DNA from: Patescibacteria group bacterium
GTDB taxonomy: Bacteria; Patescibacteriota; Microgenomatia; UBA1400; PJMF01
Direction: 5' to 3'
NCBI GenBank assembly: GCA_049322655.1
Contig: JBMORP010000006.1
Span: 448,410-512,409, forward strand
DNA length: 64,000 nt
Position numbers and translations under genes: made by a program. The notes below the pieces were generated by a model. That model was not told the DNA's origin and made no database searches. It worked only from the letters and a program-made list of their open reading frames with translations. Below are positions 41,510 to 56,940 of this stretch, one piece after another (position 1 is the first letter of the stretch; every line of letters begins with the position of its first letter).

Positions 41510-42211
41510 ATGGGCAGTAATTACTTTCATATAGCTATCGATGGACCAGTTGCAGCTGGTAAAGGAACTGTTTCTAGATTAGTTGCCCAAAGACTAAATT
41601 TCTTATATGTCGATACCGGTGCCATGTATCGCATGACAGCCTATCTGGCTTTTACTCATAACGTGCCCTATTCCAACGAACAAACAATTGTTGAATTAAT
41701 TAAAAAATCAAAAATGGAGATGAGAAATCCCAATGATAAAGAAAAAGATGGCCGATTAACAACCGTGTTCTTGGACGATGATGACGTTTCCTGGAAAATT
41801 AGAACCGAAGAAATCAGCCAAGGCTCATCAAAAGTAGCTGTTCTACCAGCGGTCAGAAAAGTATTAGTTGAAAAACAACAACAAATAGCCAAAGGCCAGA
41901 ATGTCATTATGGAAGGACGTGATATCACTCACACGGTTCTACCCGAAGCAGAATTAAAAATCTATTTAACAGCCAAAACCAAAGAAAGAGCTGAAAGAAG
42001 ATTACTCCAACTTCAACAAAAAGGCATCGATACCACTTTACAACAAGTGATGAGTGATATTGAACAAAGAGATGAAAGAGATATGAATCGAGCCACTGAT
42101 CCACTCAAAAAAATACCTGAAGCTTGGGAAATAGATACTTCTAATTTATCAATCGAAAAAGTAGTTGATAAAATTGTCGCTAAAGTAGAAGCAATGAGAA
42201 TAAAAAAATGA
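41510..42211 (+). CDS. cmk: Cytidylate kinase
   Basis: IAIDGPVAAGKGTVSRLVAQRL...YVDTGAMYR; 233 aa. Confidence 0.9.
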   Translation: MGSNYFHIAIDGPVAAGKGTVSRLVAQRLNFLYVDTGAMYRMTAYLAFTHNVPYSNEQTIVELIKKSKMEMRNPNDKEKDGRLTTVFLDDDDVSWKIRTEEISQGSSKVAVLPAVRKVLVEKQQQIAKGQNVIMEGRDITHTVLPEAELKIYLTAKTKERAERRLLQLQQKGIDTTLQQVMSDIEQRDERDMNRATDPLKKIPEAWEIDTSNLSIEKVVDKIVAKVEAMRIKK

Positions 42212-42405
42212 CCAAAGATCCTGAAGAAATTAAAGATATCCAAGAAAAAACTATTAAAACAGAAGAAAAACTGCTCAAAAAGAAAAAAGAACGAGACAGT
42301 AAAAATCCAAAAGAAGAAACTTCTGCTCAAGAAAAACTAATCGCTCCAACTTTACTAGTGATTACTCTGTTGTTGTCTTACCTTATTTATCTTTTTAAAA
42401 ACTAG
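42208..42405 (+). CDS. Small Lys/Glu-rich protein with C-terminal TM (65 aa)
   Basis: ORF overlapping the cmk stop by 4 nt; weak. Confidence 0.3.
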   Translation: MTKDPEEIKDIQEKTIKTEEKLLKKKKERDSKNPKEETSAQEKLIAPTLLVITLLLSYLIYLFKN

Positions 42406-44813
42406 TTACTAATCATTGCTCCTCCACCCAATTGGTCTCGTGGTTGTTCTTTATCTTTTGGCAGAAATGAATTTTCATTACAAGCAAATCTTGGTTCTTG
42501 CCCCTTGATAAAAATTTCTTTGCTTATATAAGGACATTGTTGACAGGGTAAAGTCCCAGTGGCTTTACAAATCGACACCTCAACCAAACCTTCAGGTAAA
42601 ACAAATTGATGGGGCTCATTATCATCAAGTAATAACCTCATTACTTTGTTCCAGATTGGTGAAGCTCCAGTAATACCAGAAGCAACATAGCTCATTGGTG
42701 TATTGTCGTTGTTACCCACCCAAACAGCCACTAAGCGGTCAGTAGTATAACCAACTGCCCAGTTATCTCGCAAACTATTAGTTGTCCCGGTTTTAACCGC
42801 AACTTGTTGGTTTGGGATATTTAAAACCGAGTAAGGACCAAAGGCAGGAGTTCGAGCTGTGTTGTCTGCCAAGATATCACTGATCAAAAACGATGCTTCT
42901 GGAGAAAAAACCTGGTTATCAAAACAATCTCTTTGCTCAAAAACACACTTGTTTTCATACCAAGTTTGACCATCGTTAGTGTGCACTTCTAATAAAGGAT
43001 TTAATTTCGCCAAATTACCTTGATTAGCAAAAACACCATAAACCTGTGACAACTCAAACATCGTCACTTCACCACCGCCTAAAGTTAAAGATAAACCAAA
43101 ACGACTTCTGTCTTTCCAAGTAGTAATACCAGCTTCTTCTGCTTTGTCTAAAAATTGATTAAGACCAATCTCTGCTAACGTTTTTACAGCTGGAATATTG
43201 TAAGAAGAAGCTAACGCTTCTCTTAAAGTAACCAAACCATGAAACTTTCCATCATAGTTTTGTGGAGCATAAGGTGGACTACCAACTGTCTGATAAACAA
43301 TCGGCGAATCATCAATAATCGTTGATGGGCTCTTACCATTTTCTAGAGCAATAGCATAAGTTAAAGGTTTGATTGACGAACCTGGTTGTCTAGGTCTTAA
43401 AACGACATTGACTTGGCCATCATGGGCAAAATCAAAGTAGTCTTTAGAACCCACCATAGCCAAGATTTCACCGGTTTCTGGCTTGGTTACCAAGACTGCT
43501 CCATTGCCCACTTTTAGCGCTTCTAATCTAAGCAGTTCTTGAGCTAAAATCTGCTCGACCTCTTTTTGTAAATCTAGGTCCAAAGTCGTTCTAACCTCAA
43601 AACCGGCTGTTTGTAGAACATCTTCCCCATATTTTTCAGCCAAAAGTTTTTTAACGTACATGACAAAATGTGGTGCCTGAATATCGATTTTATCTTCAGC
43701 AAAAACTATTTTGGTTTGCTGTGCTTCAACTAACTGTTGGTGAGAAATATAGCCATCTTCAAACATTCTTCTCAAAACTTCTTCCTGTCTAGCAAAAGCC
43801 AATTCAGGATTAGAACCAAAAGGTGAATAAATCGAAGGAGCAGCCGGCAAACCAGCCAATAAAGCTGCTTCTGCTAAGTTCAAATCTCTCGCTGATTTAT
43901 TAAAGTAACGCCAAGCAGCCTCTTCAACTCCATAAGTTGAACCTCCATAAGAAACTTGATTTAAATACATTTCCAAAATCTCATCCTTGTTATAAACCCC
44001 CTCTGTTAAAACCGCCAAAACTAATTCTCTAATTTTTCTTTGAACAGTTCTTTCTGGACTAAGTAAGCGATTTTTGATTAATTGCTGAGTAATAGTTGAG
44101 CCTCCTTGTTTAATCGTTTCTTCTTTTGAATTAGCAACCAAAGCTCTCGTAATTCCAGTTAAAGAAAAGCCATGATGGTGATAAAAATCTTTGTCTTCGA
44201 TAGCAATCGTCGCGTTAATCAAGTATGGAGAAACAGCTGCTAAAGGAACTAAAGTTCTATTTTCGTCTTCATAGATTCTAAATAAAACTTTACCATTTCT
44301 ATCCAAAATTCTAGTTGTCTGCAGTGGCTTTTTTTGAGTTAAATCTAAAACAGAAGGTAATCCTTTAAAAACATAATCATAGCTAAACCAAGAAAAGCTA
44401 AGAATTAACACTGTAAAAAAAGCAGACCAGAAATTAACCCAAGCAATTCTGGGTAAAAAATAAACTTTAGTTATTTTTTTAGGTCGGCCTCTTTTTCTTT
44501 TAGCGCCAAAAAAAATTAATAACTTCTTTTGCAAAAAATAATATTTTTTAAAAAAAATTAAATAATTTTGTTCTATTTTTTTGAAAAATATTTTTTTTCT
44601 AGCTGAATAATCTTGAAAAAATTTAGAAGTTTTTCTTGGACGACCTTTTTTACGGTAAAAACCAAGCTTAACTAAAACTGCATAACCTCTGGAATATGTT
44701 TCATCTAAGTATTTATTCCAGTTTTTTTTCTTTTTTTTAAAATAAACAATAATATTTTTTCTGAAGTGATAAAAAAAAGATTTTTTTGGTCGTCCTCTTT
44801 TCCTGCTGGCCAT
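42402..44813 (-). CDS. Class A penicillin-binding protein (PBP1A: GT51 transglycosylase + transpeptidase) with AT-hook-like repeats in the cytoplasmic N-tail; probable ATG at 44813
   Basis: GT51 motifs (AIEDKDFYHHHG, GGSTITQQL); TPase SSIKP (SxxK), SYN, KTGTT; N-tail has RKRGRPKK, KKGRPRK, KRKRGRPKK before the TM helix. Confidence 0.9.
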   Translation of the reverse strand: MASRKRGRPKKSFFYHFRKNIIVYFKKKKKNWNKYLDETYSRGYAVLVKLGFYRKKGRPRKTSKFFQDYSARKKIFFKKIEQNYLIFFKKYYFLQKKLLIFFGAKRKRGRPKKITKVYFLPRIAWVNFWSAFFTVLILSFSWFSYDYVFKGLPSVLDLTQKKPLQTTRILDRNGKVLFRIYEDENRTLVPLAAVSPYLINATIAIEDKDFYHHHGFSLTGITRALVANSKEETIKQGGSTITQQLIKNRLLSPERTVQRKIRELVLAVLTEGVYNKDEILEMYLNQVSYGGSTYGVEEAAWRYFNKSARDLNLAEAALLAGLPAAPSIYSPFGSNPELAFARQEEVLRRMFEDGYISHQQLVEAQQTKIVFAEDKIDIQAPHFVMYVKKLLAEKYGEDVLQTAGFEVRTTLDLDLQKEVEQILAQELLRLEALKVGNGAVLVTKPETGEILAMVGSKDYFDFAHDGQVNVVLRPRQPGSSIKPLTYAIALENGKSPSTIIDDSPIVYQTVGSPPYAPQNYDGKFHGLVTLREALASSYNIPAVKTLAEIGLNQFLDKAEEAGITTWKDRSRFGLSLTLGGGEVTMFELSQVYGVFANQGNLAKLNPLLEVHTNDGQTWYENKCVFEQRDCFDNQVFSPEASFLISDILADNTARTPAFGPYSVLNIPNQQVAVKTGTTNSLRDNWAVGYTTDRLVAVWVGNNDNTPMSYVASGITGASPIWNKVMRLLLDDNEPHQFVLPEGLVEVSICKATGTLPCQQCPYISKEIFIKGQEPRFACNENSFLPKDKEQPRDQLGGGAMISN

Positions 44814-44882
44814 GCTAGGCGAGATTATAACAAAACTCCCCACTAAATAGTGGGGAGAAATAAGCAATAAAAATTTTATTTT

Positions 44883-47054
44883 TTAGATTGGGCAAGCACC
44901 ACTTTCACATTTGAGATGGTCCAAGTTAATGTCTTCCAGCAAGCCATCTTCATCACTAATTTCACGAATAACTTTCATAAATTCATTGATATTAATTGCT
45001 TCTTCTGGTTGATATTCATAAGCTGTTGCATCAATCTTGGGCATCACACTACAAGTTCTAATTTGTGGCTGATATTTGGTTACCATCGCTTTGAATTTTT
45101 GATAGGAAACTTTATCTGGATCATATTTCAAAGTATAAGAAACTTGGTTACCAGTATCAGGTTCTAATGGTTTGCCAGCTTCATCGATACCTCTAATCCA
45201 ATATTTTTCTAGTAACATCAACCATTTATATTGTTCTTCAGGAGTAGCTTCAGCGGCAGTAACTAATTGGCCATTCATTCCCAATTTACAGATTTCTGGT
45301 TGAGTGGGAAAACCAACGACCGTAGTCCCTGGATAGCTTTTTAGTTCTCTAACTGGGTAACCCATTTTCTTATATTTCTTAACTAGTGGATCATCCTCTC
45401 TAAACTGCACCCAACGAATATATTCCCTCATGGCTGGTAAATGAGCTCCTTCAGAAAGACCAAAAAGTTTTGATGTAGTACCAGCTGGTTTAATCGTGGT
45501 ATTAGTATGAGGCAAATTAACTCCCAATTTTTTGGAGTATTTTTCAGCTTCATCAACCACTGCTCTTTTAAATCTAGCAATAGTTAACCAAAAGTCTTTA
45601 GCTTTTTTTTCATCAATTAAATCTCTAAAGCTGTAACCAAAAGCATTCCAAGCATACTCGTGAATACCAGTCATCCCCACTCCAATTCGGTTAGTTCTTT
45701 TAACCTCCCTGGTGTAAAGAGAATCCATGGTGTTAGTTCTAATCAAAGCTCTGGTAGCAACTCTGAAAGCTTCTTCAGCTGCTTCAACATCTGGAGCATG
45801 ATATGGCACCACATCAGCAATCACACAATAACCACCCAACATGTTAAGAGTAATCTCTCCACAAGGGTTGGGAATCTGCGTATAGTATTTAGCACCAGCT
45901 TTTTTAGCTACCTTGGCTAGTAATTTTCGAGCATTATTAGTTGGTTGATATTTTTTACTATCAGCATATTTACCATCAACATAACCGTTAAAACCTTTGT
46001 CATTTTGCACATACTTATGTTGATTAACAAAACCTGGCTCTCCAGTTTTGTCGTAGTAAGCTGCTTTCAAGATAGCATCCAAAACTTTCTTTGAATGTTT
46101 GGTTTTTTGTTTCCAAAACTTGTCATCAACAGCAACACTATTGTTAGCAGACCACAAAAAGCCACCTTTCTTGATCGAGATAAAATCAAAAATACCAGCA
46201 TCAGTCCAAGTTTTAACCGCAATTCTAGCGGCTCTTCTAGCGCCACCCACCAATACACACTCTGACAAATAGTGATCGACAAAAATAGTTTGTCGCCATG
46301 GTTCCATACCAGAATTTTTCACTGTCGCCACTTTCTGAATTGCTTTCATTAAAGGTCTGGGACCAGAAGCTGGTCTGTTCTGCATTCCTTTAATCTTGGC
46401 GCCTTTAGGTCTAACTTTGGAAAAATCAATAATTAACAAATCATCTTTGTATTTTTTCTCAAAGGCCATGGTTTCAATCTTCTCAATTGCTTGAGCCCAA
46501 CCTTCGCGCGTATCTGGTACCTCAAACCAAAAAACTTTACCATATTTATGCTTGGCATCTCGCACACTCTCATCTTCACCCCAAATAAAGTCTGGATGAT
46601 TCTCGTCTAAAACACAACGAATGATGGGCATCTGGTCCCAATCAACCACCATTAAATCATCATCATAGGCTCTACCCACACCAGAGCCATTCAACAATAA
46701 GTAAAATAACAAGAAAGAACTAGAAGCAGTACTACAGTTCGTAAAAACCTCCATATTTCTGCTGGGTTGAGTCTCATCACCATGTTGAAGGTGGCGACCA
46801 CTCATTAATAAAGAAGCATTAGCAATGTGTTTTTTTAATAATTCGTACTCAGCTTGTTGGTGTTTTTTGTCATTCTTAACCAACAAAGAATTGCCCAAGG
46901 CAACTCGGTCAGCTACTTCACTCCAAGTCTCAAGGTTGCCTTTTTCATCAGTACGCAAAATAGTTCTCTTAGCAACAGCTTCACCCAAGCCCTTAGCCAA
47001 TCTTCTATCGGTAAATTTCATTTTTTTCTTTGGTAGTGCTCCCGCTTGGGTCAT
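44883..47054 (-). CDS. nrdJ: Class II (adenosylcobalamin-dependent) ribonucleotide reductase
   Basis: 723 aa monomeric type; active-site NPCGEI motif, C-terminal Cys pair (CESGACPI); 21 nt downstream of nrdR. Confidence 0.7.
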   Translation of the reverse strand: MTQAGALPKKKMKFTDRRLAKGLGEAVAKRTILRTDEKGNLETWSEVADRVALGNSLLVKNDKKHQQAEYELLKKHIANASLLMSGRHLQHGDETQPSRNMEVFTNCSTASSSFLLFYLLLNGSGVGRAYDDDLMVVDWDQMPIIRCVLDENHPDFIWGEDESVRDAKHKYGKVFWFEVPDTREGWAQAIEKIETMAFEKKYKDDLLIIDFSKVRPKGAKIKGMQNRPASGPRPLMKAIQKVATVKNSGMEPWRQTIFVDHYLSECVLVGGARRAARIAVKTWTDAGIFDFISIKKGGFLWSANNSVAVDDKFWKQKTKHSKKVLDAILKAAYYDKTGEPGFVNQHKYVQNDKGFNGYVDGKYADSKKYQPTNNARKLLAKVAKKAGAKYYTQIPNPCGEITLNMLGGYCVIADVVPYHAPDVEAAEEAFRVATRALIRTNTMDSLYTREVKRTNRIGVGMTGIHEYAWNAFGYSFRDLIDEKKAKDFWLTIARFKRAVVDEAEKYSKKLGVNLPHTNTTIKPAGTTSKLFGLSEGAHLPAMREYIRWVQFREDDPLVKKYKKMGYPVRELKSYPGTTVVGFPTQPEICKLGMNGQLVTAAEATPEEQYKWLMLLEKYWIRGIDEAGKPLEPDTGNQVSYTLKYDPDKVSYQKFKAMVTKYQPQIRTCSVMPKIDATAYEYQPEEAININEFMKVIREISDEDGLLEDINLDHLKCESGACPI

Positions 47055-47075
47055 TGCTCCCTTTCCGTTTGATTA

Positions 47076-47525
47076 TTATTTTTCTAATTTGCTAATCTCA
47101 CCCTTAAAGTCTTCTAGACTGTCAAAATCTCGATAAACAGTCGCAAATAACAAGTAAGCCAAAGGATCTAGTTTTTTTAGTCTATTAATGACTAAATTAC
47201 CTATCTCCCAACTTTTGATCTCGGTAACATGCTTATCTCTAATTTTCGATTCAACCTCATTAATTAAAGTATCAATTTCTGCCACGGAGACAGGCCTTTT
47301 CCAAGTTGCTTTGATTAAACCTCTTTTGATTTTTTCCCGACTAAAGAACTCTTTAGAACCATTTTTTTTGATTACTTTTAAATCAATTCCTTCTGCACGT
47401 TCATAAGTAGTGAAACGACGTTTGCAACTTTCACATTCACGTCTCCTGCGAGTAGCCTCACCACCCTCGGCATCTCTGGAGTCAATGACTGCTAAATTGC
47501 TTTCTTTACAAAAAGGACACAACAT
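47076..47525 (-). CDS. nrdR: Transcriptional repressor NrdR (zinc ribbon + ATP-cone); start at ATG 47525
   Basis: MLCPFCK...CESCKRRFTTYE plus ATP-cone. Confidence 0.9.
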   Translation of the reverse strand: MLCPFCKESNLAVIDSRDAEGGEATRRRRECESCKRRFTTYERAEGIDLKVIKKNGSKEFFSREKIKRGLIKATWKRPVSVAEIDTLINEVESKIRDKHVTEIKSWEIGNLVINRLKKLDPLAYLLFATVYRDFDSLEDFKGEISKLEK

Positions 47526-47540
47526 ATTCTCTTCCCAATA

Positions 47541-47556
47541 CCACAATATATTGTGG
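47541..47556. promoter_or_regulatory. NrdR box 1 (CCACAATATATTGTGG)
   Basis: Perfect 16-bp palindrome matching the NrdR-box consensus acaCwAtATaTwGtgt; 16 nt upstream of the nrdR ATG. Confidence 0.6.
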
Positions 47557-47573
47557 TTTAGACAAATTTTCTG

Positions 47574-47589
47574 CACAACAAGTTGTACA
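47574..47589. promoter_or_regulatory. NrdR box 2 (degenerate: CACAACAAGTTGTACA), ~33 bp from box 1
   Basis: ACAAC-aa-GTTGT palindrome; spacing consistent with the tandem NrdR boxes described for nrd operons. Confidence 0.4.
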
Positions 47590-47667
47590 GAAAATTCTTA
47601 GGGTATAAAGAATCTCATATCGAACGGAATAGAGTCAATAGATAAAAAAAGATCAAAGATAATCAGC

Positions 47668-48192
47668 TTATTTGAGTTTTGTTAATAATAAGCTCTGCTC
47701 TTGAATTAAGCGGTCAAGCAACTGTTGTTGTTCATCATCAAAACTTGGTTTTAAAGCTAACACTTTTTCTCTAAATTGATCTGCCTGAAAAACCAGTTCT
47801 GACTTGGTTGCCTCATCAAGCCCTTCAGCTTCAATTAAACCCGTGTTTTGGTACTTATAAGCCTTAGTTAAAGTAGAAAAAGAAAGACTTTGATAACCTT
47901 TTTTCAATAGCTGTTCTGTAGCAACCAACCTTTGCCAACCATAAGAGATATTAAGCTCTGATTTTTTTTCTTCACTAGCTAAAGTCAGCCTAACTCGATC
48001 AAAAACCATAAAAACTGGATACAAAATATGATCAGGTAAAATCTCTTTTTCTAAATACATTTTTTTTTCAGTTAGTTGCAAAGATTTTCCTTGAGAAAAA
48101 ATTCTATTGGCAGAGAAAAAAGATAGAAAAACAATCAATAAACCAAAAACCAAAAAAATAAACTGAGGAGCTGTTTTAACAATAAATTTCAT
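47668..48192 (-). CDS. Hypothetical membrane-anchored protein (174 aa)
   Basis: N-terminal TM; ORF only. Confidence 0.4.
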   Translation of the reverse strand: MKFIVKTAPQFIFLVFGLLIVFLSFFSANRIFSQGKSLQLTEKKMYLEKEILPDHILYPVFMVFDRVRLTLASEEKKSELNISYGWQRLVATEQLLKKGYQSLSFSTLTKAYKYQNTGLIEAEGLDEATKSELVFQADQFREKVLALKPSFDDEQQQLLDRLIQEQSLLLTKLK

Positions 48193-48229
48193 AATTAGCT
48201 ACAAAAAAGGAGATTATATAATCTCCTGG

Positions 48230-48910
48230 TTAAAAGTGAAGTAACAACACCATTCCCCAAAGAGCTTGAGAAATTACTAAGGTATAACCATTTTCCTCAA
48301 CATAAAAAAGCAAAGCTTGACCCAAACCAAATAAACTCAGTAAAAATACTTGATAAGCAATTCCCAAGCCTTCAAAACGTAAAATAATATTGGGCAAGTG
48401 AAAAAGCAAAAAAATCGCAGTCACAAACAGCACCTGTTTAATTAATGACCACTTGGGAAATTGGGCTTTGGTTGCCAAAAAAACAAAGCTAAAAAAGAAT
48501 AAGGTCTCCCAAAAACCAGTTACTAGAGCCCAAAAAAACTCATACCAAAAAACTCCTGATTCAAAAGGATAAGCAGGCACCACTGTTCCTTTTTGCCAAA
48601 CCGCCAAAGTTGCCGCCAAAAAACCATATAAACCACCAATGGCGATTCCCATCATCAAACCACGCTTAACTTTATAGGAAGCAAAAGTATCGACAATTTC
48701 TCTTTGTTTGCTCACCAAAATATAAAGCCAAACAGGCAAACCAAAAAAAATTGTTTTACCAATTGATTCATCGAACCACACTGGAAAATCAAACAAACCT
48801 CGATAAAGAAACCAAAAAACAAAACTTAAAAAAAGTAATGGTAAAAAAGCCACCGTCGAAATACGTGGTTTGACAACTGTATGCTTAGTCTTTTTTCTTC
48901 TTGAGGGCAT
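48230..48910 (-). CDS. Polytopic membrane protein, possibly CPBP/Abi (CAAX-protease-like) family
   Basis: 6-7 TM helices; conserved-looking E/H positions (FWETLFF, LLFHLPN, LLLHF); weak. Confidence 0.4.
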   Translation of the reverse strand: MPSRRKKTKHTVVKPRISTVAFLPLLFLSFVFWFLYRGLFDFPVWFDESIGKTIFFGLPVWLYILVSKQREIVDTFASYKVKRGLMMGIAIGGLYGFLAATLAVWQKGTVVPAYPFESGVFWYEFFWALVTGFWETLFFFSFVFLATKAQFPKWSLIKQVLFVTAIFLLFHLPNIILRFEGLGIAYQVFLLSLFGLGQALLFYVEENGYTLVISQALWGMVLLLHF

Positions 48911-49550
48911 TCAAGACCTTGTTGAGTGACTGTTCTTTACTTAATGAGTAAGTATCTAACACTACATCGTAAAGATCTGGATGCCAAAAATCAATCGGAG
49001 CATCAGCTTTTAGAGTTCCAGCTTTCACGACCCACTCTTTCCATTCTTTAGCATACATTTTGGACCATTTTTGAAGATTCTCAATGTATCTTTGGTGCAT
49101 ATTGTCTTTGGCTTCTTCAACAGTTACCGAGTCCCTATTCACCACTCGGTCAATTCTGATAGATTCTTCACTACAAATCATTAAAACTTTTAAAGTTCCC
49201 TCAACCCCTTGAGCCATAAAACCAGACAACCAAGACTCAATAATCCAGCGACGTTCTGTTGATAGTTTTTCTCTAATCCCCATATCTACTTTTCTGTCAA
49301 AATCTTCGCCATAGGCCATCGAAGAATGGTGGAGTTTTAACTTTGGATCAAACAAATTATTTTCAGCAGCATAAGCTCTCATGAATTCTCCACCACTGAA
49401 ACCAGACCATTTGTCGAATTTTAGGGCTTCTTTCAACATTGACAGCAAAGTTGTAGAACCAGCTCCAGGCAAACCAGAAATAGTAATATTTTTATAAGCA
49501 AAAGAATGATCCATTTGCATGTTTTTTCTTTCTAATAATTGGTTGCACAA
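48885..49550 (-). CDS. P-loop nucleotide kinase, archaeal-type cytidylate-kinase-like family
   Basis: ITISGLPGAGSTTL...GGEFMRAYAAENNL resembles the archaeal CMP kinase family (ITISGLPGSGKTT...AGEIFRELA). Confidence 0.55.
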   Translation of the reverse strand: MCNQLLERKNMQMDHSFAYKNITISGLPGAGSTTLLSMLKEALKFDKWSGFSGGEFMRAYAAENNLFDPKLKLHHSSMAYGEDFDRKVDMGIREKLSTERRWIIESWLSGFMAQGVEGTLKVLMICSEESIRIDRVVNRDSVTVEEAKDNMHQRYIENLQKWSKMYAKEWKEWVVKAGTLKADAPIDFWHPDLYDVVLDTYSLSKEQSLNKVLNALKKKKD

Positions 49551-50017
49551 GACTGTGCTAAATCCATAGCTGCTACAATCAGAGAAATTCTCTTTTTCAT
49601 TTTTTCATAAGAATACAAGGTTTCTTCTCCCGGGAAAGAATGAACCACTCTATTCCTCCCCTCTAACCAAGCTTGCCAAAGAGCATCGCCAACCGCTTCT
49701 CCACAATGTTGAACCACATCATCGTATAACCACCATTCATCACGATGATTATTTCTAATATCTGGGTTAAGGGCTCGACCGATTCTAAAGCGCTTGCTAT
49801 GATAAAGCTTATCATCAATCAAACCAGCATCTAGTAAATATTTTTTAATAAACGCTTCGTAAACCTTGGCCATTAAGAAAACAATAAAAGAATAATCTTC
49901 AAGGTTTGACATTAGTTCTTTATCTTCAGCCAACCTAACTGCTGTCCTGACCAAAGCTTGGTGCTCAGCATCCAAGTAACTAAACCAATTGCTAGAAAGA
50001 AAACCTTGCCAATTCAT
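49532..50017 (-). CDS. Alpha-helical protein with HEPN-like RNRVVHSF (Rx4HxF) motif (HepT/DUF86-like?)
   Basis: 161 aa; motif GRNRVVHSF near the C-terminus; 19-nt overlap with the downstream kinase-like gene. Confidence 0.4.
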   Translation of the reverse strand: MNWQGFLSSNWFSYLDAEHQALVRTAVRLAEDKELMSNLEDYSFIVFLMAKVYEAFIKKYLLDAGLIDDKLYHSKRFRIGRALNPDIRNNHRDEWWLYDDVVQHCGEAVGDALWQAWLEGRNRVVHSFPGEETLYSYEKMKKRISLIVAAMDLAQSCATNY

Positions 50018-50119
50018 AGATTAATAAGCCATAATTCAATACTACTTGTCCATCCTAGATGATAGGATACAAAAACTATAACATAAGATTATATTTAATT
50101 CCTCTGAAATAGCCTCACC

Positions 50120-52441
50120 ATGAATAAAAAGAAAAAAAACAACCATCTTAAAGAAATCTCCAAAAAAGCCTTACTAGGAAAAACTGAACCAAAACAAAAA
50201 AAAACTAAAGCAAATAGTTTTTTAAAAGAAATCATTACTGATCCCTTGACGAAATATGTTATTTTGGGCGTTTTTACGGTTGCGCTAGCGCTCTTTGCTT
50301 TTTTTATTAAAGACTTACCATCTCCTAAAAACCTAACTTCCCAAGAAAATTTTTCCGTTAGCACCCAAATTTTTGATCGCCACGGCAAACTACTTTATGA
50401 AATTTATGCAGACGAAAATAGAATTCCTATTAAGATTGAAGATCTCCCTCCCCATGTTCTCCAAGCAACTATTGCTATCGAAGATAAAAATTTTTATAAA
50501 CATTTTGGTTTTGATCTTGAAGGTATAGCTAGAGCTTTAAAAAATAATTTAACTGGAGATAAACTTGAAGGTGGTTCTACCATTACTCAACAGTTAGTCA
50601 AAAATGCTTTATTAACTCCAGAAAAATCACTACAAAGAAAAGTCAAAGAGGCAACTTTGTCAGTTTTGACCGAAATAATTTATACCAAAGAAGAAATCTT
50701 AGAGATGTATCTCAACTACATCTCCTACGGTGGAACAGCCGTAGGGATTGAATCAGCAGCCAAAAAATACTTTGATAAAAGCGCTAAAGATTTAACTTTG
50801 GCAGAAGCTACCATGCTAGTTGGACTTCCTCAAGCTCCGAGTCTCTATTCTCCTTTTGGTTCAGATCCAGAAAGAGCAAAAAATAGACAAGCCGAGGTTT
50901 TGAGAAGGATGGTAGAGGAAGGATATATCTCTCCACTGGAAGCAGAGGATGCTAAAGCTGAAACTTTGCAATTTGCCCTTAAGAAAACCGACATTAAAGC
51001 TCCTCATTTCGTTTTTTATGTCAAAGATATACTTTATGAAAAATATGGAGAAGAAACTGTTGAAAAAGGAGGCTTGAGAGTCACTACAACTCTAGATTTA
51101 GATTTACAAGAAGCAGCCCAAGCGTCTTTATCTGCTGAAATAGACAGTCTACAAAGACTTAAAGTTGGTAATGGGGCTGCAATGGTAACAAAGCCTAATA
51201 CTGGTGAAATCCTAGCCATGGTTGGCTCCAAAAATTACTTCAATTCTGAAGAAGATGGTCAAGTCAATGTTGCCATAGCCTATCGTCAACCAGGTTCCTC
51301 TATCAAACCAATTGTCTATGCCACTGCCTTCCAAGAAAAAACCCTTAATCCAGGAACTATTCTGCTAGATATTCCCACCTGTTTTAAGCTACCCAACCAA
51401 GCTGACTATTGTCCAAATAACTACACTGGAGACTTCAAAGGACCAATCTCTGTCAGACAATCATTAGGCAACTCACTTAATATTCCAGCTGTTAAAGCTA
51501 TTAGTACCATCGATGTGCCAACTTTTATCAATCAGGCCCAAAAAATGGGGATTACTGGTTGGAACGATCCTAGTAATTACGGCCCCTCGATTGCCCTAGG
51601 TGGTGGTGAAGTGAGGATGATCGACATGGCCCAAGCTTTTGGTTCTTTAGCTAACCTGGGGATTAAGGTTCCCCTAACTCCGATCTTAAAAATCGAAAAC
51701 TATAAAGGTGAAACTTTAGAAGAGTTTGATCGAGAAAAAACAAAACAAACTTTAAAAGAGCTACAAGCTGATGAGTTTTCATCTAGACAAGGGGATTTAG
51801 AAAGAGTCTTAGAGGCTGGCCCAGCCTATTTAGTCAGTCATATTATGCAAGATAATACAGCTAGAACTTTAGCTTTTGGTTCAAATTCTCAGTTAGTTAT
51901 TCCTGGTCAAGTAGTCAGTGCTAAAACTGGCACCACCAATGATTTAAAAGATAACTGGACAATTGGATTTACCCCCGAATTTTTGACTGTTACTTGGGTG
52001 GGTAACAATGATGGCTCATCGATGAGCTACGTTGCTTCTGGCGTAACTGGAGCAGCTCCAATTTTCAACGACATTATGAGCTATGCTTTGAGAGACCAAG
52101 AGTCACTTTGGCCAGAAAAACCAGAAAGTGTTATCAAAGGACCAATTTGTTCTTCTGGCTTTCCACCCCAACTGGACGAAAATAACTGCAGTGTGATCGG
52201 TGAAGACTACTACTGGAAAGAAAGCCAACCTTCCTTGTCAACAAAGATGGAAAAAGAGGTTTGGATCAAACCAGAAACAGGCTTGCCCCCAGAATATGGG
52301 GAGCAAGCAGAAGGCTTAGTTTTGGAAAAACACACTCTATACCAAGACCCAGTCACTGAACTCTACTGTGCTGATTGTAATCGTCCCGTGGATGAACAAG
52401 GAAAGGTTGTTTACGAAAAACATTATGTTGAACAACGCTAA
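50120..52441 (+). CDS. Second class A penicillin-binding protein (PBP1A-like)
   Basis: AIEDKNFYKHFG, GGSTITQQL, SSIKP, SLGN, KTGTT; 773 aa. Confidence 0.9.
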   Translation: MNKKKKNNHLKEISKKALLGKTEPKQKKTKANSFLKEIITDPLTKYVILGVFTVALALFAFFIKDLPSPKNLTSQENFSVSTQIFDRHGKLLYEIYADENRIPIKIEDLPPHVLQATIAIEDKNFYKHFGFDLEGIARALKNNLTGDKLEGGSTITQQLVKNALLTPEKSLQRKVKEATLSVLTEIIYTKEEILEMYLNYISYGGTAVGIESAAKKYFDKSAKDLTLAEATMLVGLPQAPSLYSPFGSDPERAKNRQAEVLRRMVEEGYISPLEAEDAKAETLQFALKKTDIKAPHFVFYVKDILYEKYGEETVEKGGLRVTTTLDLDLQEAAQASLSAEIDSLQRLKVGNGAAMVTKPNTGEILAMVGSKNYFNSEEDGQVNVAIAYRQPGSSIKPIVYATAFQEKTLNPGTILLDIPTCFKLPNQADYCPNNYTGDFKGPISVRQSLGNSLNIPAVKAISTIDVPTFINQAQKMGITGWNDPSNYGPSIALGGGEVRMIDMAQAFGSLANLGIKVPLTPILKIENYKGETLEEFDREKTKQTLKELQADEFSSRQGDLERVLEAGPAYLVSHIMQDNTARTLAFGSNSQLVIPGQVVSAKTGTTNDLKDNWTIGFTPEFLTVTWVGNNDGSSMSYVASGVTGAAPIFNDIMSYALRDQESLWPEKPESVIKGPICSSGFPPQLDENNCSVIGEDYYWKESQPSLSTKMEKEVWIKPETGLPPEYGEQAEGLVLEKHTLYQDPVTELYCADCNRPVDEQGKVVYEKHYVEQR

Positions 52442-52473
52442 GGCTGTTACAATCTGATATACTTTGTGAAAGT

Positions 52474-53670
52474 GTGAAAAAAATAATTAACGGCATTTTA
52501 CTTTTAAGTTTTTTTACTTTAATAGCTATCTGGCTTTTTGTTGAGATTCCTTTATTTTCACCCTTTTCACCTGATATAAATAAACTAACCAAATCATCTC
52601 AAACCAATAAAAAAATCTATGGTTTTCTTCCATATTGGAATCTAAACGATGTTGTTTTGCAAGACGAACTAACCGATCTTGCCTACTTTTCTCTGACAAT
52701 TAATGACGATGGCACTATTAAAACCAATGATGAAGAAAATCTAGATCCAGGATTCTATAAACTTCAATCAGAAGAATTTTCCCAACTCCAAAACCATACA
52801 ATTAACCAAGGAAAAAAAACCCATGTGGTCTTAACCCTTTTTGAAAATAAAAAAATCACTGCTTTCCTCGACTCGCCAAAAGCCATGGCCAAGTTTTATG
52901 AGTCAATAGATTCTCTCCTGCTAGCTTACCCTTTTGACGGCCTAAACTTAGATATTGAGTACACTGGTGAAGCCAGTGATGAACTAAGAAATAAATATAC
53001 TCAATTTGTACAAAACCTCTCCATCCATCTCAAAACAAAATACCCAACTATTGAATTCAGTCTGGATACCTATGCAGCTGCAGCCAGTAAAAAAATGCTT
53101 TGGGATATTAAAAATCTTCATCAACACGTGGATTATATTGTAGTGATGGCCTATGACTTCAGTCAAAGCCACTCAGCTCAAGCTGGTCCAGTTGCGCCAT
53201 TATTTAATAAAGAAAATTCCTGGCAAGAAAGTATTCATTCTTACCTATCAGATTTTGCCAAACAAGTACCAACCAACAAAATTTTATTGGGCATCCCTTT
53301 TTATGGATATGAATGGCAGACAACTACCAGAGAACCACAGGCTTTTACCTTTCCCAAAACTGGGGCCACAGCCAGTTACAAACGAGTTAAAGAGATAATC
53401 GCTAGAAAAGATGAACTGCAACTAGAACAACATTGGGATGAAGCAGCTCTGGAACCATACCTAACTTACTCAGAAAACGGGAACTTTTTTACAATTTACT
53501 ATGAAAATCCAGAATCACTAAAATACAAACTTGAATATGTTAACCAACTCAATTTAGGTGGAATTGCTATCTGGTCACTTGGCTACGAAGGAAGTTCAAG
53601 AGAGCTCTGGGATGTTATTCATCAGCAGCTTCTACCTCCTGAGCCAACCACCAACTCCATAAGCCAGTAA
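52474..53670 (+). CDS. Membrane-anchored glycoside hydrolase family 18 protein
   Basis: Signal-anchor TM; GH18 catalytic motif FDGLNLDIEY (DxxDxDxE); MAYDF. Confidence 0.75.
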   Translation: MKKIINGILLLSFFTLIAIWLFVEIPLFSPFSPDINKLTKSSQTNKKIYGFLPYWNLNDVVLQDELTDLAYFSLTINDDGTIKTNDEENLDPGFYKLQSEEFSQLQNHTINQGKKTHVVLTLFENKKITAFLDSPKAMAKFYESIDSLLLAYPFDGLNLDIEYTGEASDELRNKYTQFVQNLSIHLKTKYPTIEFSLDTYAAAASKKMLWDIKNLHQHVDYIVVMAYDFSQSHSAQAGPVAPLFNKENSWQESIHSYLSDFAKQVPTNKILLGIPFYGYEWQTTTREPQAFTFPKTGATASYKRVKEIIARKDELQLEQHWDEAALEPYLTYSENGNFFTIYYENPESLKYKLEYVNQLNLGGIAIWSLGYEGSSRELWDVIHQQLLPPEPTTNSISQ

Positions 53671-55150
53671 ACATAAAAAACAATCCACCAATCACCAAAG
53701 CAATCGTGTTACCTACAGAACCAGCTGTATAGGTACCACTATCTGTAGAAACAATGGCTGATCTAGTTGATGGCTCTACTGGAGAGGATGCTACTGGACT
53801 AGTGGGAGCAATTGTTGGAGTTTCGATGGGGAAAGGATTACCAGAACCGAATGGTGAAGTGTTTTCTGCAAAAGGATCAGTAGCCTGAACAATAAAAGAC
53901 TGAGTCTCAGTAATAGTTTGACCTGTTGTTGGATTGGTATAACTGTAAGTTACCGTATGATTACCTGGCTCAAGAATTTTTTGTAACTCAATAATATTTA
54001 AAACAAAATCACCAGTACTATCAGCTTTAACAGTTTGGTTAATCACCGCTTCAGAATGTACTTCTATTTTTACCTCTACGTTGGGGGCTGCCTTCCCTTT
54101 AATAATCGGTTGGTTAATTAAAACTGGAGTATCTGTTTTGGCAACGGTAGTTAAGTCTAAAACCTCTGCTGCCACTTGTTCAGCAATAGTTTCGAGCGTT
54201 TGAGCACCCTGTTGAGTAGTAGTTGATTCTGAGCTCGTGTCTTCATCAGCAAAATCTATTAAGTCTGTTAGGGAAGCCAACTTTTTATCGCCACTAATAC
54301 TTACATCTACCACCAAATCTTCTTGATTCAAAACGGCTTCTTCAGCAACTTCATTGGTTGCTTCTTGGATTTGAGGAACTTGGCCCAGAATTACTTCAGG
54401 AACAGGCTGAGCAGCATTGATACCAACAGAGAAATTAGAAACTTTGGTTGGCTCAACTCCCTGAACAATTACATTCACTGAGTCGGTGTCAGTTAGCTCA
54501 GCATAACCAGAACCATCTTTTTTCCTAGCATTAGAAAGAGCTAAAGCCCAACTCCCGGAAGATTTAACCAAGGTAGACATTTCACCAACATCGACCGTAG
54601 AAACAAAAACAATACTTCCCTCTGCGGGAGCGCCTGATTCCGTCACAATAGTTCCATAAATAGTTTTATTAGTGGGCGGAGCGCTGGTTGGTGGAGGGAG
54701 AGTTTTAATAGCAAATGGTACTCCATTATTATCAAAGTTAGATCCAGAAGCAGTCCCCAAGACATAATTATAGTTAGTGTTGGGAGTCAATCCTCTAACC
54801 GTCACATGGTGCAATCTATAATTGCCAATCGAACCTGATAACTGATCACGATCATCGGTGGCTTGGGACTTTAGTGAATTAGCCTCGGTACCATACTTCA
54901 CAAAGCCATTAGTACTTTCATCTGTATAAAAAACCACAGTAAAAGACTTATCTGTAAGATTAGTCACTTTAACATTTTTGGGGGTAGTTTGAGGGGTAGC
55001 CCTTGGAGCAAAGACACCAGTGCCTTCACCAAACATCATTAAACCAGCTACCAAAGAGATAATTAAGATTCCCAAACCAAGTAAAGTGGGAATTTGTTTT
55101 TTGGCTAGTGGTGTTTTTCGTTGATTGGCAGGTACTTGCATACAAAACAC
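53615..55150 (-). CDS. Large surface protein with FN3-like and Ig-like domains, N-terminal signal anchor and C-terminal TM
   Basis: VKVTNLTDKSFTVVFYTDE...YRLHHVTVRGLTPNTNYNY (FN3-like); Thr/Pro-rich linkers; C-terminal IALVIGGLFFMFTGLWSWWL; overlaps the GH18 gene 3' end by 56 nt. Confidence 0.5.
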   Translation of the reverse strand: MFCMQVPANQRKTPLAKKQIPTLLGLGILIISLVAGLMMFGEGTGVFAPRATPQTTPKNVKVTNLTDKSFTVVFYTDESTNGFVKYGTEANSLKSQATDDRDQLSGSIGNYRLHHVTVRGLTPNTNYNYVLGTASGSNFDNNGVPFAIKTLPPPTSAPPTNKTIYGTIVTESGAPAEGSIVFVSTVDVGEMSTLVKSSGSWALALSNARKKDGSGYAELTDTDSVNVIVQGVEPTKVSNFSVGINAAQPVPEVILGQVPQIQEATNEVAEEAVLNQEDLVVDVSISGDKKLASLTDLIDFADEDTSSESTTTQQGAQTLETIAEQVAAEVLDLTTVAKTDTPVLINQPIIKGKAAPNVEVKIEVHSEAVINQTVKADSTGDFVLNIIELQKILEPGNHTVTYSYTNPTTGQTITETQSFIVQATDPFAENTSPFGSGNPFPIETPTIAPTSPVASSPVEPSTRSAIVSTDSGTYTAGSVGNTIALVIGGLFFMFTGLWSWWLAQEVEAADE

Positions 55151-55269: not shown

Positions 55270-55665
55270 TTAATTACCAATGGGTGACAGCTCTTCCGCT
55301 GCAGTAGTTGATTCAGCAACATCACTTTTAATAATCAGATCTTCATCTGGTAGTCCATCTCTAACATCGATTACTTTAGTTGTCCCCCCATCTTGGTAAA
55401 GAGCATAGATCGGAAAATCTTGTAGTTCAAACTCAGAAAAAACTCTTTTTTGTTCTACTTTTTCCAAAACGCTAACATTAATATTTGGTGTTAAAGGTTG
55501 AGCTAATTTTTTTTGTTCAGGAGTAATTCCTAGTTTTTGCTGAGAAGTAAATAAACTCAAACCAATCCAAAAAATAATAATTACAAATAAAAACAATAAA
55601 ATAATCAATAACTCTTTTCTCTTTTGTAAGCTTTTTAATTGATCTTGAAAAGAATTTTCTACCAT
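55270..55665 (-). CDS. Hypothetical single-TM protein in the pilus-like cluster (131 aa)
   Basis: TM LLIILLFLFVIIIFWIGLSLF; start overlaps the PilO-like stop. Confidence 0.35.
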   Translation of the reverse strand: MVENSFQDQLKSLQKRKELLIILLFLFVIIIFWIGLSLFTSQQKLGITPEQKKLAQPLTPNINVSVLEKVEQKRVFSEFELQDFPIYALYQDGGTTKVIDVRDGLPDEDLIIKSDVAESTTAAEELSPIGN

Positions 55666-56285
55666 TATTCCTTTTCTCCAAAATAAGGAGCAGCAATTAA
55701 AATAGTTGCCTCCAATGACTTCTGGCCTCGATTATCTTCCGTAGAGAAAGTAATTCTCTCTGTCGTAAAACTTCTACGAGAATTTCTCAGACCTTCCACA
55801 AAACCTCTGATAGAACTATAAGAACCAACGACCGACATTTGAATCGGCATAGCCTTTCTCTCTAAATCAACCAAAGCTTTATCAACTGAAGGATCTTCAG
55901 GAATATCCAATAAAGTCATGTTGGTAATAGCTAAATTCTGCTCACTAGCAATTCTTTCAATGATTTTTAAGGTCTGAGTCACGTTTGCCCCTCTAGGCAA
56001 CGCTTCTTCTAACACGCCAATTCTATCTTGAATTGTCAGGTATTGAGCTTGAGCTGTTCCCAAAGCAGCTACTTTTTGAGCCATTTGAGTATCTAATTTG
56101 CGCTTATCCTCGATTTCTTTAACTAGCTCAGACATCGTTAATAAAGTTGGTCTGATGGCAAAAACAGCAAAAAAGATCACCACTACTATTGATAAAAATA
56201 ATTCAAAAGAAACTACTGCCACTGGATTGTGGTAAAAATTATCAAGAAGTTTAGTAATTTGTTCTTGTCGAGTTGTTTGTGCCAT
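55665..56285 (-). CDS. PilO-like type IV pilus assembly protein
   Basis: Short N-terminus, TM, coiled coil, C-terminal domain; order after the PilN-like gene. Confidence 0.4.
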   Translation of the reverse strand: MAQTTRQEQITKLLDNFYHNPVAVVSFELFLSIVVVIFFAVFAIRPTLLTMSELVKEIEDKRKLDTQMAQKVAALGTAQAQYLTIQDRIGVLEEALPRGANVTQTLKIIERIASEQNLAITNMTLLDIPEDPSVDKALVDLERKAMPIQMSVVGSYSSIRGFVEGLRNSRRSFTTERITFSTEDNRGQKSLEATILIAAPYFGEKE

Positions 56286-56305
56286 TTTTTAGATCACTAA
56301 ATTAA

Positions 56306-56884
56306 TTATTTTTTTACTGCCTTTTGGGTCACTGCTTCCTGAGTTTGGGCTGTTAATTGAAACGAAAAACCAGATGACTTTATGCCTTCAGATTCAATCG
56401 TACTAACAACAATATTATGAAACTTGGGTGAAATTTGAAGATTATTAATCAAAATATTTAGTGATTTCTGAGATAAGACCGTTCCTTTTAAGGCAACTCT
56501 ATCAGGGTAAATCACTAACTCATCCAACTTAATTCCAGTTGGCACAACCTCAGCCAACGAAGGAAAAGTATCGGCAATATTGGCGCTTTGTTCTATCTCT
56601 TCATATTGGGCAATTCTTGTTTGAATCGCTCTTACCTCTTGTTCAAAATTACCATAAGAATTAATCACTGATTCTTTCTGAAAAATTGCTCTATTTAAAT
56701 CAGTAATTTGTCGATCAAGATAAAAACGAGTCACAAAACTCAAAACTACAATCAACTCAGTAAACATCACAATATATCGACCAGCAGACAATGCCCACTT
56801 CAAACCTCTCCCTAGTAAAGTCTCAAAAAAGGGGTCTTTGGGAACAAGGTTAATATCGATTGTCGCGGTTTTTTCAGTTGGCAT
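56306..56884 (-). CDS. PilN-like type IV pilus assembly protein
   Basis: N-terminal IDINLVP (INLLP-type motif) followed by a TM helix and coiled coil; 192 aa. Confidence 0.5.
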   Translation of the reverse strand: MPTEKTATIDINLVPKDPFFETLLGRGLKWALSAGRYIVMFTELIVVLSFVTRFYLDRQITDLNRAIFQKESVINSYGNFEQEVRAIQTRIAQYEEIEQSANIADTFPSLAEVVPTGIKLDELVIYPDRVALKGTVLSQKSLNILINNLQISPKFHNIVVSTIESEGIKSSGFSFQLTAQTQEAVTQKAVKK

Positions 56885-56940
56885 AAGGGCAGTACTAAAC
56901 TCATTGTAAGCTGTTTTTACTCAAGCTACAAGGAAAACAA

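Follow-up and report, generated by a model that had tools for sequence, protein, structure and literature searches.

The penicillin-binding protein gene and its product

We analysed a 64-kb stretch of DNA (37% GC; here called the window) from an uncultured, tiny-celled member of Candidatus Pacebacteria (Patescibacteria). On its minus strand the window carries a gene for a class A (bifunctional) penicillin-binding protein (PBP), an ORF of 803 aa plus stop codon at 42402..44813, which we refer to, together with its orthologues, as hook-PBP. The gene order is GH18, second PBP1A, NrdR, ribonucleotide reductase (RNR), hook-PBP, a 65-aa ORF, cytidylate kinase and a LiaF-like gene. Few bacterial enzymes have been studied as thoroughly as class A PBPs, though their short cytoplasmic ends have mostly been ignored.

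Pfam searches identified a GT51 glycosyltransferase domain (PF00912 Transgly, E 1e-62) at residues 174-350 (43764..44294, minus strand) and a transpeptidase domain (PF00905, E 1.1e-26) at residues 438-725 (42639..43502, minus strand). The protein scored 515 bits against the NCBIfam model TIGR02074 PBP_1a_fam (cut-off 508.75), and the best PDB matches of its predicted fold in Foldseek were E. coli PBP1b and S. aureus PBP2 (E 1e-34 to 1e-33). The GT51 motifs EDKDFYHHHG (residue 206) and GGSTITQQ (residue 237) are present, as are the transpeptidase motifs S479-S-I-K (SxxK), S537-Y-N (SxN) and K674-T-G (KTG), whose SxxK, SxN and KTG residues are invariant across 41 orthologues. A single transmembrane anchor at residues 121-149 (44367..44453, minus strand) was given both by an AF2 helix over these residues and by Kyte-Doolittle analysis; when 19-residue windows were scored over the first ~190 residues, the best eight all fell inside 119-149, the top one being 123-141. 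The gene product is a normal bifunctional class A PBP with one membrane helix and both catalytic domains extracellular. From the topology of class A PBPs and the positive-inside rule, applied to a tail with a net charge of +37, we infer that the N-terminus is cytoplasmic.

The translation start of hook-PBP is the ATG at 44813. An alternative TTG start at 44867 was excluded because a terminator-like hairpin (44836..44857, minus strand) falls inside that extension; this hairpin, which follows the upstream RNR gene, has 9 bp, 6 of them G-C, and is followed by a T-run. Among the orthologues, either similarity ends or a stop codon is met 5' of a common MA..KRGRP start. An extended -10-like sequence read from the DNA, TGTTATAAT (44824..44832, minus strand), ends 10 nt before the ATG, so a very short leader is implied. 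The consensus scan called no full promoter upstream of hook-PBP because a -35 match was absent.

The N-terminal tail and its three motifs

The tail that precedes the anchor (residues 1-120; 44454..44813, minus strand) is polycationic and consists of three hooks and two amphipathic helices. A motif search placed hook 1, RKRGRPKK, at R4-K11 (44781..44804), hook 2, RKKGRPRK, at R54-K61 (44631..44654) and hook 3, KRKRGRPKK, at K105-K113 (44475..44501), all on the minus strand, with GRP at residues 7, 57 and 109 (window positions 44787-44795, 44637-44645 and 44481-44489, respectively). These three hooks were the sole matches to [KR]GRP[KR] in the six frames of the 64-kb window, and when the tail was shuffled with its composition kept, at least three GRP were obtained in only 1 of 2,000,000 shuffles (P ~5e-7). 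The core of the AT-hook, G-R-P after R with K/R flanks, is found in all three motifs, except that K, not R, precedes G in hook 2. Against the Pfam AT_hook model (PF02178, cut-off 17.4) the excised tail scored 21.0-21.3 bits and the whole hook-PBP 11.7 bits. Judged by sequence, the three motifs are of the AT-hook type, and their binding to the A/T-rich minor groove is putative.

A sequence-only reading of this DNA had described a class A PBP with three RGRP-type motifs in a cytoplasmic Lys-rich tail, and Pfam, TIGR02074 and the motif search all agree with that description. Its assignment of the motifs to the AT-hook type is supported by the score of the excised tail, and its remark that RGRP is missing from the Lys-rich tail of the second PBP1A (50120..52441) was correct, no GRP being found there. 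Its claim that the DNA contains three direct repeats of GGTCGNCC did not hold: on the plus strand hook 3 reads GGTCGGCC and hook 1 reads GGTCGTCC, but hook 2 reads GGACGACC, with GGTCGTCC occurring on the opposite strand, and the supposed repeats are no more than the GRP codons. On the coding strand these are GGA CGA CCA, GGT CGT CCA and GGC CGA CCT, the codons of one hook differing at both wobble bases. Because the codons differ, the similarity at the DNA level is only what the peptide motif imposes. That the three hooks arose by a recent duplication of DNA was also considered and rejected, since the codons differ and the units are only ~26% identical to each other.

A polycationic tail rich in aromatic residues might bind RNA or ribosomes instead of DNA, acting as an extended AT-hook or as an Arg-rich RNA-binding tail; it could, for instance, hold mRNA or its translation close to the membrane. 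Precedents are extended AT-hooks, which bind RNA, and the basic tails of YidC/Oxa1-type insertases, which bind ribosomes. However, the hooks of hook-PBP are of the short canonical type, with K/R immediately adjacent, and there is no specific pointer to RNA; we regard this explanation as very improbable.

Conservation among homologues

Across the 41 orthologues, the only invariant columns of the tail are R6 G7 R8 P9, G57 R58 and G109 R110 P111; K113 is conserved in at least 90% of them. Apart from this core, tail identity ranges from 18 to 62% in an alignment of 27 tails. K and R are freely exchanged in the flanks of the hooks, so charge alone does not account for the G-R-P core. The dN/dS of the tail is 0.22-0.42, which indicates that it is under purifying selection, and synonymous changes are present within the GRP codons. 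The earlier reading had argued that the tail is really translated; the ATG at 44813, upstream of all the hooks, and a dN/dS below 1 bear this out, and in relatives the repeats are present in frame.

Not every hook is canonical. In one large clade hook 3 is KKVGRPKK or KPGRPKK, so that G follows V or P and not the canonical R, and hook 2 is GRGRKK, its proline replaced by K with the spacing retained. Three orthologues, L006, L014 and L020, have the same gene neighbourhood and long basic tails, and their hooks are absent. The existence of these hook-less orthologues implies that the hooks are dispensable for the core role of the enzyme, and because their neighbourhood is identical, the gene order says nothing about the hooks. 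The GC content is 35-48% in hook-bearing loci versus 33-54% in hook-less loci, and since these ranges overlap the comparison is uninformative on A/T targeting.

Organisation of the tail

In the sequence-only reading the hooks appeared as free motifs within a Lys-rich tail, a view that has to be revised. They are part of a defined module with a 50-residue period, in which a hook, an amphipathic helix of ~38 residues, a second hook, a second amphipathic helix and a third hook are followed by the membrane helix. AF2 predicted amphipathic helix 1 at residues 13-49 (44667..44777, minus strand; pLDDT 82-87) and amphipathic helix 2 at residues 62-101 (44511..44630, minus strand; pLDDT ~81). The pLDDT fell below 50 at residues 1-8 (hook 1), 53-62 (hook 2) and 105-120 (hook 3), and the same pattern of hooks below 50 and adjoining helices at 78-87 was found in both the window protein and the homologue P0074, whose tail is ~24% identical. 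The hooks are predicted to be unstructured when free, which matches the behaviour of AT-hooks. Of 145 intervals between hooks among the homologues, 116 measure 50 residues, and the module has a constant length (117, 115, 111 or 102 residues), whereas the position of hook 1 (7-217) and the distance from the hooks to the membrane helix (6-91 residues) both vary freely. The placement of hooks between long conserved amphipathic helices at this period differs from the setting of eukaryotic AT-hooks, which is free and disordered. The 50-residue pattern of hook and helix could instead represent a folded helical repeat or an array on the membrane surface.

If the tail were a membrane-surface module, its helices, with their Lys/Arg and Trp/Phe/Tyr residues, would lie in the interface of the inner leaflet and bind anionic lipids, with GRP serving as hinges; its role would be topology enforcement, lipid-domain clustering or curvature sensing, and nucleic acid would not be involved. 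Such a role would suit the composition of residues 1-122, which contain 28 K, 13 R and 4 acidic residues (net charge +37; K+R 34%) and 27 F/Y/W residues (22% aromatic), as well as the strikingly Trp-rich tails (WWYH...) of the higher-GC homologues, which are typical of interfacial peptides. It would also suit the retention of long basic tails in the hook-less orthologues, and both inter-hook segments are confident AF2 helices with a conserved hydrophobic face, the conserved hydrophobic columns showing a 100-degree periodicity at 7.3x (helix 1) and 6.5x (helix 2) the mean power. Yet electrostatic binding to lipids needs no invariant Gly-Arg-Pro in a tail where K and R exchange elsewhere, the window protein has only moderate hydrophobic moments (0.2-0.45), and hook 1, being at the free N-terminus, would need no hinge. 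Weighing these points, we think it distinctly unlikely that the tail is such a module.

The other structural explanation is that GRP marks the helix caps or loops of a small domain of helical repeats, with Gly as C-cap and Pro as N-cap; GRP would then have no role of its own in ligand binding, and its likeness to AT-hooks would be convergent. The constant length of the module fits this explanation, and so does the PDB entry that the tail profile matches best, a designed helical-repeat protein (E 0.002) with units of ~50 residues whose L-G-D-P loops align with G-R-P. We rejected homology to this protein, since it is a design and the match follows from periodicity and composition. Further, AF2 gives 10-16 disordered residues per hook, not tight turns, and the K/R runs in the flanks are not needed for a turn. 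In the window clade no helix precedes hook 1, which begins at residue 4, and it must thus be more than a turn between helices. We regard a helix-capping role on its own as very improbable.

Distribution of the hook module

A profile of the module, searched locally with hmmsearch, matched 72 of the 120 nearest homologues, in every case at the N-terminus. The motif was present in 11 proteins encoded by 1.36 Mb of related Patescibacteria loci (1228 ORFs, 424,000 aa), and 10 of these were hook-PBP; a profile of the repeat unit had no match outside hook-PBP. AT_hook was the only Pfam family that recurred in the tails of homologues (8 of 27 members at E <=0.01; best E 2e-6). The tail profile was also searched exhaustively against 1.84 billion representative proteins. 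Beyond fragments of hook-PBP this yielded 23 matches, and all of those inspected (13/13) were multi-AT-hook proteins of eukaryotic type, which have acidic, Ser-rich linkers and of which 5 of 7 exceed the Pfam AT_hook cut-off. No full-length PBPs were listed in the exhaustive search of representatives, which makes it unfit for counting the size of the family; the 50%-identity clusters are presumably represented by members with differing tails.

In a word-indexed search of a 5.8-billion-protein index, the full tail profile found one fragment only, P0121. Since the same profile at the same Z matches 72 of 120 homologues by hmmsearch, this result reflects the limit of the word index and not absence. 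The profile of a single 50-residue unit had no match in that index because it is too short for a database of this size, and a 24-residue hook peptide had no match among PDB sequences. As far as these searches go, the hook module is confined to the hook-PBP orthologue group of Pacebacteria-like Patescibacteria. The literature and family models searched describe no PBP whose tail has AT-hooks or a hook-helix repeat of 50 residues, and literature searches for AT-hooks with penicillin-binding proteins or Patescibacteria, or for PBPs and the nucleoid in the Candidate Phyla Radiation (CPR), found nothing relevant.

These data bear on a further explanation, in which the RGRP motifs are short linear sites where a cytoplasmic protein docks; this partner could be an adaptor, a cytoskeletal filament or a scaffold for division or elongation. 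With three copies at a fixed spacing, binding to an oligomer or filament would gain avidity, as with GpsB and the class A PBPs of Firmicutes. An invariant G-R-P with variable flanks resembles a peptide-recognition site, and the strict 50-residue spacing, set against the variable distances to the N-terminus and the membrane helix, suggests a periodic partner. There is also a precedent for Arg-rich motifs in PBP tails: GpsB binds SRxxR(R/K), TRxxYR and RSxxxR motifs there, and it is hexameric, with avidity contributing to binding (PMC6335420). However, residues 1-125 contain no match to [ST]Rxx[RY][RK], a pattern that takes in both SRxxR(R/K) and TRxxYR, and the literature found describes GpsB as a protein of Firmicutes. 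No candidate partner was found; the neighbourhood is unchanged in hook-less orthologues, so no co-inherited neighbour points to one. In addition, the motif sequence is indistinguishable from a DNA-binding hook, and the other profile matches inspected were AT-hook proteins. We consider docking unlikely.

Discussion

The reading that we favour, tentatively and at somewhat less than even confidence, is that the tail is a multivalent nucleic-acid tether. Each hook, disordered when alone, would bind short A/T tracts of the chromosome by inserting its R-G-R core into their minor groove. The basic amphipathic helices would serve as spacers of fixed length, lying on the inner leaflet of the membrane and/or along the DNA backbone. 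As an outcome, chromosomal DNA would be pinned to the membrane at the enzyme or, put the other way round, the enzyme would be kept in place over the nucleoid.

Elements of such an arrangement have been described in other bacteria. Myxococcus CarD binds DNA via an HMGA-type domain (PMC2919716), the basic N-terminal tail of FrzCD directly binds the nucleoid (PMC5716589), and a transmembrane helix anchors Rv3852, which is a nucleoid-associated protein (PMC8233713). In the literature searched, CarD was the only bacterial AT-hook protein (HMGA-type) that we met.

The sequences point to a conserved, selected array of three AT-hook-type motifs with fixed geometry on a class A PBP. If this array binds DNA, it would provide a direct physical link from the chromosome to cell-wall synthesis, and a new kind of membrane-nucleoid tether in the CPR. 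In its boldest form, which we consider improbable, the proposal is that ultra-small bacteria bolt a peptidoglycan synthase to the chromosome via an AT-hook array, so that wall growth and chromosome position are mechanically coupled. Were this true, the bolted synthase would be a minimal one-protein system for membrane-attached chromosome segregation or nucleoid occlusion, recalling the old idea of the replicon model, in a lineage with a reduced division toolkit. AT-hooks are known almost solely from eukaryotic chromatin proteins. If the module docks a protein or binds the membrane instead, it would still be a new accessory module in a major family of antibiotic targets.

With respect to known systems, hook-PBP is like the class A PBPs (the PBP1A family, TIGR02074; PBP1b and PBP2) in its single N-terminal anchor, its GT51 and transpeptidase domains and all its catalytic motifs, but the class A PBPs that have been solved or studied have short or unrelated cytoplasmic ends. 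It is like AT-hook proteins (PF02178; HMGA and CarD) in having the R-G-R-P core, K/R flanks, several copies and hooks predicted to be disordered, and some homologues carry KRGRGRPRK, which we take to be identical to the first hook of human HMGA1. Unlike those proteins, hook-PBP bears its hooks on a membrane enzyme and not on a soluble chromatin or transcription protein, its linkers are conserved amphipathic helices at a fixed 50-residue period whereas those of AT-hook proteins are variable, acidic or Ser-rich, and some copies in its family are VGRP or GRGRKK and not the canonical AT-hook. The GpsB-binding mini-domains of Firmicutes class A PBPs offer a possible analogy, in that conserved Arg-containing motifs in the cytoplasmic N-terminus may have a positioning role. 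However, the hook motif is predicted to be non-helical, is not SRxxR, and occurs in three copies in a different phylum; the tail has ~120 residues compared with ~17-32 in the GpsB-binding peptides that have been tested, and the helical SRxxR(R/K)/TRxxYR motif near the membrane that is typical of the GpsB type (PMC6335420) was not found in hook-PBP.

If the tail is a chromosome tether, hook-PBP would resemble Noc of Bacillus subtilis, Rv3852 of M. tuberculosis and FrzCD in joining DNA to the membrane through a DNA-binding element combined with one that binds or spans the membrane, and FrzCD also in using a positively charged N-terminal tail. Noc has a ParB-like DNA-binding domain and an N-terminal amphipathic helix that targets the membrane. 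No ParB-family Pfam match was found in hook-PBP, and its likeness to Noc is a functional analogy only. It has no homology to Noc, Rv3852 or FrzCD and would differ from all three in that a peptidoglycan synthase carries the tether and an AT-hook array serves as the DNA element.

An ordinary class A PBP with an additional cytoplasmic module

The gene whose product carries AT-hook-like motifs (hook-PBP; 42402..44813, minus strand) encodes 803 residues, with a Transgly domain at residues 174-350 (Pfam, E 1e-62) and a Transpeptidase domain at 438-725 (E 1e-26). Its score against TIGR02074, the NCBI PBP1A family model, was 515 bits, above the cut-off of 508.75; the catalytic motifs EDKDFYHHHG, GGSTITQQ, SxxK, SxN and KTG were present, and the structures closest to its AlphaFold2 model were E. 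coli PBP1b and S. aureus PBP2 (E about 1e-34). In class A PBPs, the segment N-terminal of the membrane anchor is cytoplasmic. Near the N-terminus of hook-PBP, the eight most hydrophobic windows of 19 residues all lay within a single stretch, residues 119-149, so that residues 1 to ~120 should, by this topology and the positive-inside rule, be cytoplasmic. Pfam and NCBIfam have no model for this tail, and no relevant paper came up in full-text searches for AT-hook in combination with either penicillin-binding protein or Patescibacteria. We conclude that hook-PBP is an ordinary class A PBP joined to a cytoplasmic module previously undescribed.

Formal extension of the ORF reaches a TTG at 44867, so that the start proposed in the sequence-only reading, 44813, had to be weighed against an upstream one. 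A terminator-like hairpin (44857-44836, minus strand) lies inside this extension, past the stop codon (44883) of the ribonucleotide reductase gene upstream; immediately upstream of the MA..KRGRP start shared by close relatives, similarity is gone or a stop codon occurs. Both observations favour the ATG at 44813. An extended -10-like element, TGTTATAAT (44832-44824, minus strand), ends 10 nt ahead of this ATG, which suggests a very short leader, and since no obvious Shine-Dalgarno sequence was seen in the 69-nt gap between the reductase and PBP genes, the mRNA may be nearly leaderless. The tail gave dN/dS values of 0.22, 0.40 and 0.42 against three orthologues (Nei-Gojobori), compared with 0.03-0.12 for the rest of the protein, and the orthologues compared differed synonymously within the GRP codons. 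These substitution patterns bear out the earlier claim that the tail is really translated, and indicate purifying selection, looser than that on the catalytic part.

Gene neighbourhood

NrdR and a class II-like ribonucleotide reductase are encoded between two class A PBP genes in the interval 42402-53670, and a GH18 gene lies on the far side of the second PBP. Pacebacteria-like genomes (L002-L058) keep this order, both those with hooks and those without. A domain of purple-acid-phosphatase N-terminal / fn3-like type occurs in the adjoining 511-aa protein (53615-55150), and PilO-like and PilN-like proteins and the lipid II flippase MurJ are encoded at 55665-58632 on the minus strand, about 11-14 kb from hook-PBP. 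The product of a 65-aa ORF on the plus strand (42208-42405) is rich in Lys and Glu and has a hydrophobic helix at its C-terminus. The ORF overlaps the stop codon of the cytidylate kinase gene and is convergent with hook-PBP, the 3' ends overlapping by 4 nt. Its product is probably a genuine small membrane protein, since tblastn matches were obtained in the corresponding place in L002, L004, L005, L033 and L058, and also in L027. Many GTDB species-representative MAGs, among them L002 and L005-L009, are titled 'uncultured Pseudomonadales bacterium' or 'uncultured Gammaproteobacteria bacterium'. Their PBP orthologues are up to 96% identical to hook-PBP and many have the gene order of named Pacebacteria, so that these titles look like taxonomic mislabels.

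The tail carries three AT-hook motifs

The three RGRP-type motifs described earlier were recovered as RKRGRPKK (hook 1, residues 4-11), RKKGRPRK (hook 2, residues 54-61) and KRKRGRPKK (hook 3, residues 105-113), and a six-frame scan of the 64-kb window gave no further [KR]GRP[KR] match. When the tail was shuffled 2,000,000 times with its composition preserved, at least three GRP arose once. The tail is as extremely Lys-rich as had been stated, with 28 Lys and 13 Arg per 122 residues (net charge +37), and contains 27 aromatic residues; the neighbouring second PBP1A (50120..52441) indeed has a Lys-rich tail without GRP, shorter than that of hook-PBP. The motifs had also been described as three direct DNA repeats of GGTCGNCC, and this did not hold: hook 2, whose site reads GGACGACC on the plus strand, fits the pattern on the opposite strand only. 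GRP is encoded as GGA CGA CCA, GGT CGT CCA and GGC CGA CCT on the coding strand, so the peptide is what is kept, by differing codons, and the DNA likeness follows from it.

The Pfam AT_hook model scored 21.0-21.3 bits on the excised tail (cut-off 17.4) and 11.7 bits, under the cut-off, on the whole protein; it was the sole recurrent Pfam family among homologue tails (8 of 27). An exhaustive HMMER search of 1.84 billion representative proteins with the tail profile gave 27 hits, four of them N-terminal fragments of the hook-PBP family. All 13 inspected of the other 23 were multi-AT-hook proteins with acidic, Ser-rich linkers of eukaryotic type, five of the seven tested passing the AT_hook cut-off, and no other bacterial protein family appeared among the hits so inspected. 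Judged by sequence, as far as a motif of 9 residues allows, the hooks are AT-hooks. We regard this motif-level finding as solid and unusual; the function of the tail is a proposal.

Specificity and conservation of the hook array

We sampled 1.36 Mb around 79 related PBP genes (1228 ORFs, 424,000 residues). Eleven proteins contained [KR]GRP[KR], and ten of these were hook-PBP orthologues. The eleventh, a 794-aa ribonucleotide reductase-like protein of Candidatus Amesbacteria (L025:1912-4296, minus strand), begins MPEKKIQQLHKQKGRPRKV and has a single N-terminal AT-hook-like motif, KQKGRPRKV; with a rough composition-based expectation of about 0.75, this one occurrence is consistent with chance. 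A repeat-unit profile matched PBP orthologues only. A profile of the whole module (hook, helix 1, hook, helix 2, hook, ahead of the membrane helix) matched 72 of the 120 nearest homologues in a local hmmsearch, each at the N-terminus (E <= 1e-3, scaled to a 5.8-billion-sequence database), whereas a word-indexed search with the same low-complexity profile returned one fragment; negatives from this word index should not be trusted for Lys-rich queries.

The closest homologues come from Patescibacteria, and the few named ones among them from Candidatus Pacebacteria. The RGRP repeats are kept in relatives: among the 120 best homologues, 89 of 119 scorable proteins have at least one GRP ahead of the catalytic domain, with one GRP in total elsewhere, and the only invariant tail columns in a 41-sequence full-length alignment were R6 G7 R8 P9, G57 R58 and G109 R110 P111. 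In a few more distant Microgenomates PBPs, whose tails differ in other respects, there is a lone PPGRPRK or LPGRPKK. Orthologues at L006, L014 and L020 share the gene neighbourhood and have a different tail, long and basic and without hooks, so a long cationic tail has been elaborated with the hook array in a clade-specific manner.

The repeat unit is a basic hook, about 38 residues and a hydrophobic-Gly-hydrophobic end. Of 145 intervals between successive hooks, 116 measure 50 residues and a further 14 measure 52, while the first hook lies anywhere from residue 7 to 217 and the last 6 to 91 residues from the membrane helix. In one large clade (P0023-P0056), the middle hook is GRGRKK, with proline replaced by lysine (e.g. 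P0023, residues 80-90), and the third is KKVGRPKK, and the spacing is still 50 residues; either geometry outweighs canonical hook chemistry or two good hooks suffice. Invariance and fixed spacing would also fit a partner protein, oligomeric or filamentous, that docks on the three hooks, much as GpsB recognises Arg motifs in Firmicutes PBP tails (PMC6335420), but the GpsB motif is absent from the hook-PBP tail and no candidate partner is in sight, and we consider docking unlikely.

A putative nucleic-acid tether

AlphaFold2 models of hook-PBP and P0074, a homologue with a tail ~24% identical, gave pLDDT below 50 for the hooks and predicted each of the two inter-hook segments as a single long helix (pLDDT 78-87). 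Conserved hydrophobic columns in both recurred at 100 degrees with 6.5-7.3 times the mean power, indicating that the predicted helices are amphipathic with a conserved face. Being amphipathic and rich in Lys/Arg plus Trp/Phe/Tyr, the two helices taken alone resemble peptides that bind at the membrane interface, and a membrane-surface module is a rival reading that we consider unlikely. With the tail profile, the top PDB match was a designed helical repeat whose LGDP loops aligned to GRP (E 0.002), which suggests a purely structural reading of GRP, as a loop signature of a helical repeat, that we think improbable. The designed protein was rejected as a homologue of the tail, the likeness being in periodicity only. 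There is a similarly small chance that the tail binds RNA or ribosomes.

We tentatively favour, as the most likely reading, that the tail tethers nucleic acid in a multivalent way. The three hooks would occupy minor grooves at A/T tracts of this 37%-GC genome, and the two basic amphipathic helices would serve as fixed spacers along the membrane surface and/or the DNA backbone. By rough inference, a 38-residue helix of about 57 Å plus a bound hook would span approximately two B-DNA turns, which could explain the fixed hook spacing. A tether is suggested because the core Gly-Arg-Pro is invariant while flanking Lys and Arg interchange, because hook 1, being at the free N-terminus, needs no structural turn, and because the hooks are predicted to be disordered and the motif is exclusive to hook-PBP. 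There are also bacterial precedents: CarD has HMGA-type DNA binding (PMC2919716), FrzCD binds the nucleoid by a basic N-terminal tail (PMC5716589), and Rv3852 is a nucleoid protein with a membrane-helix anchor (PMC8233713).
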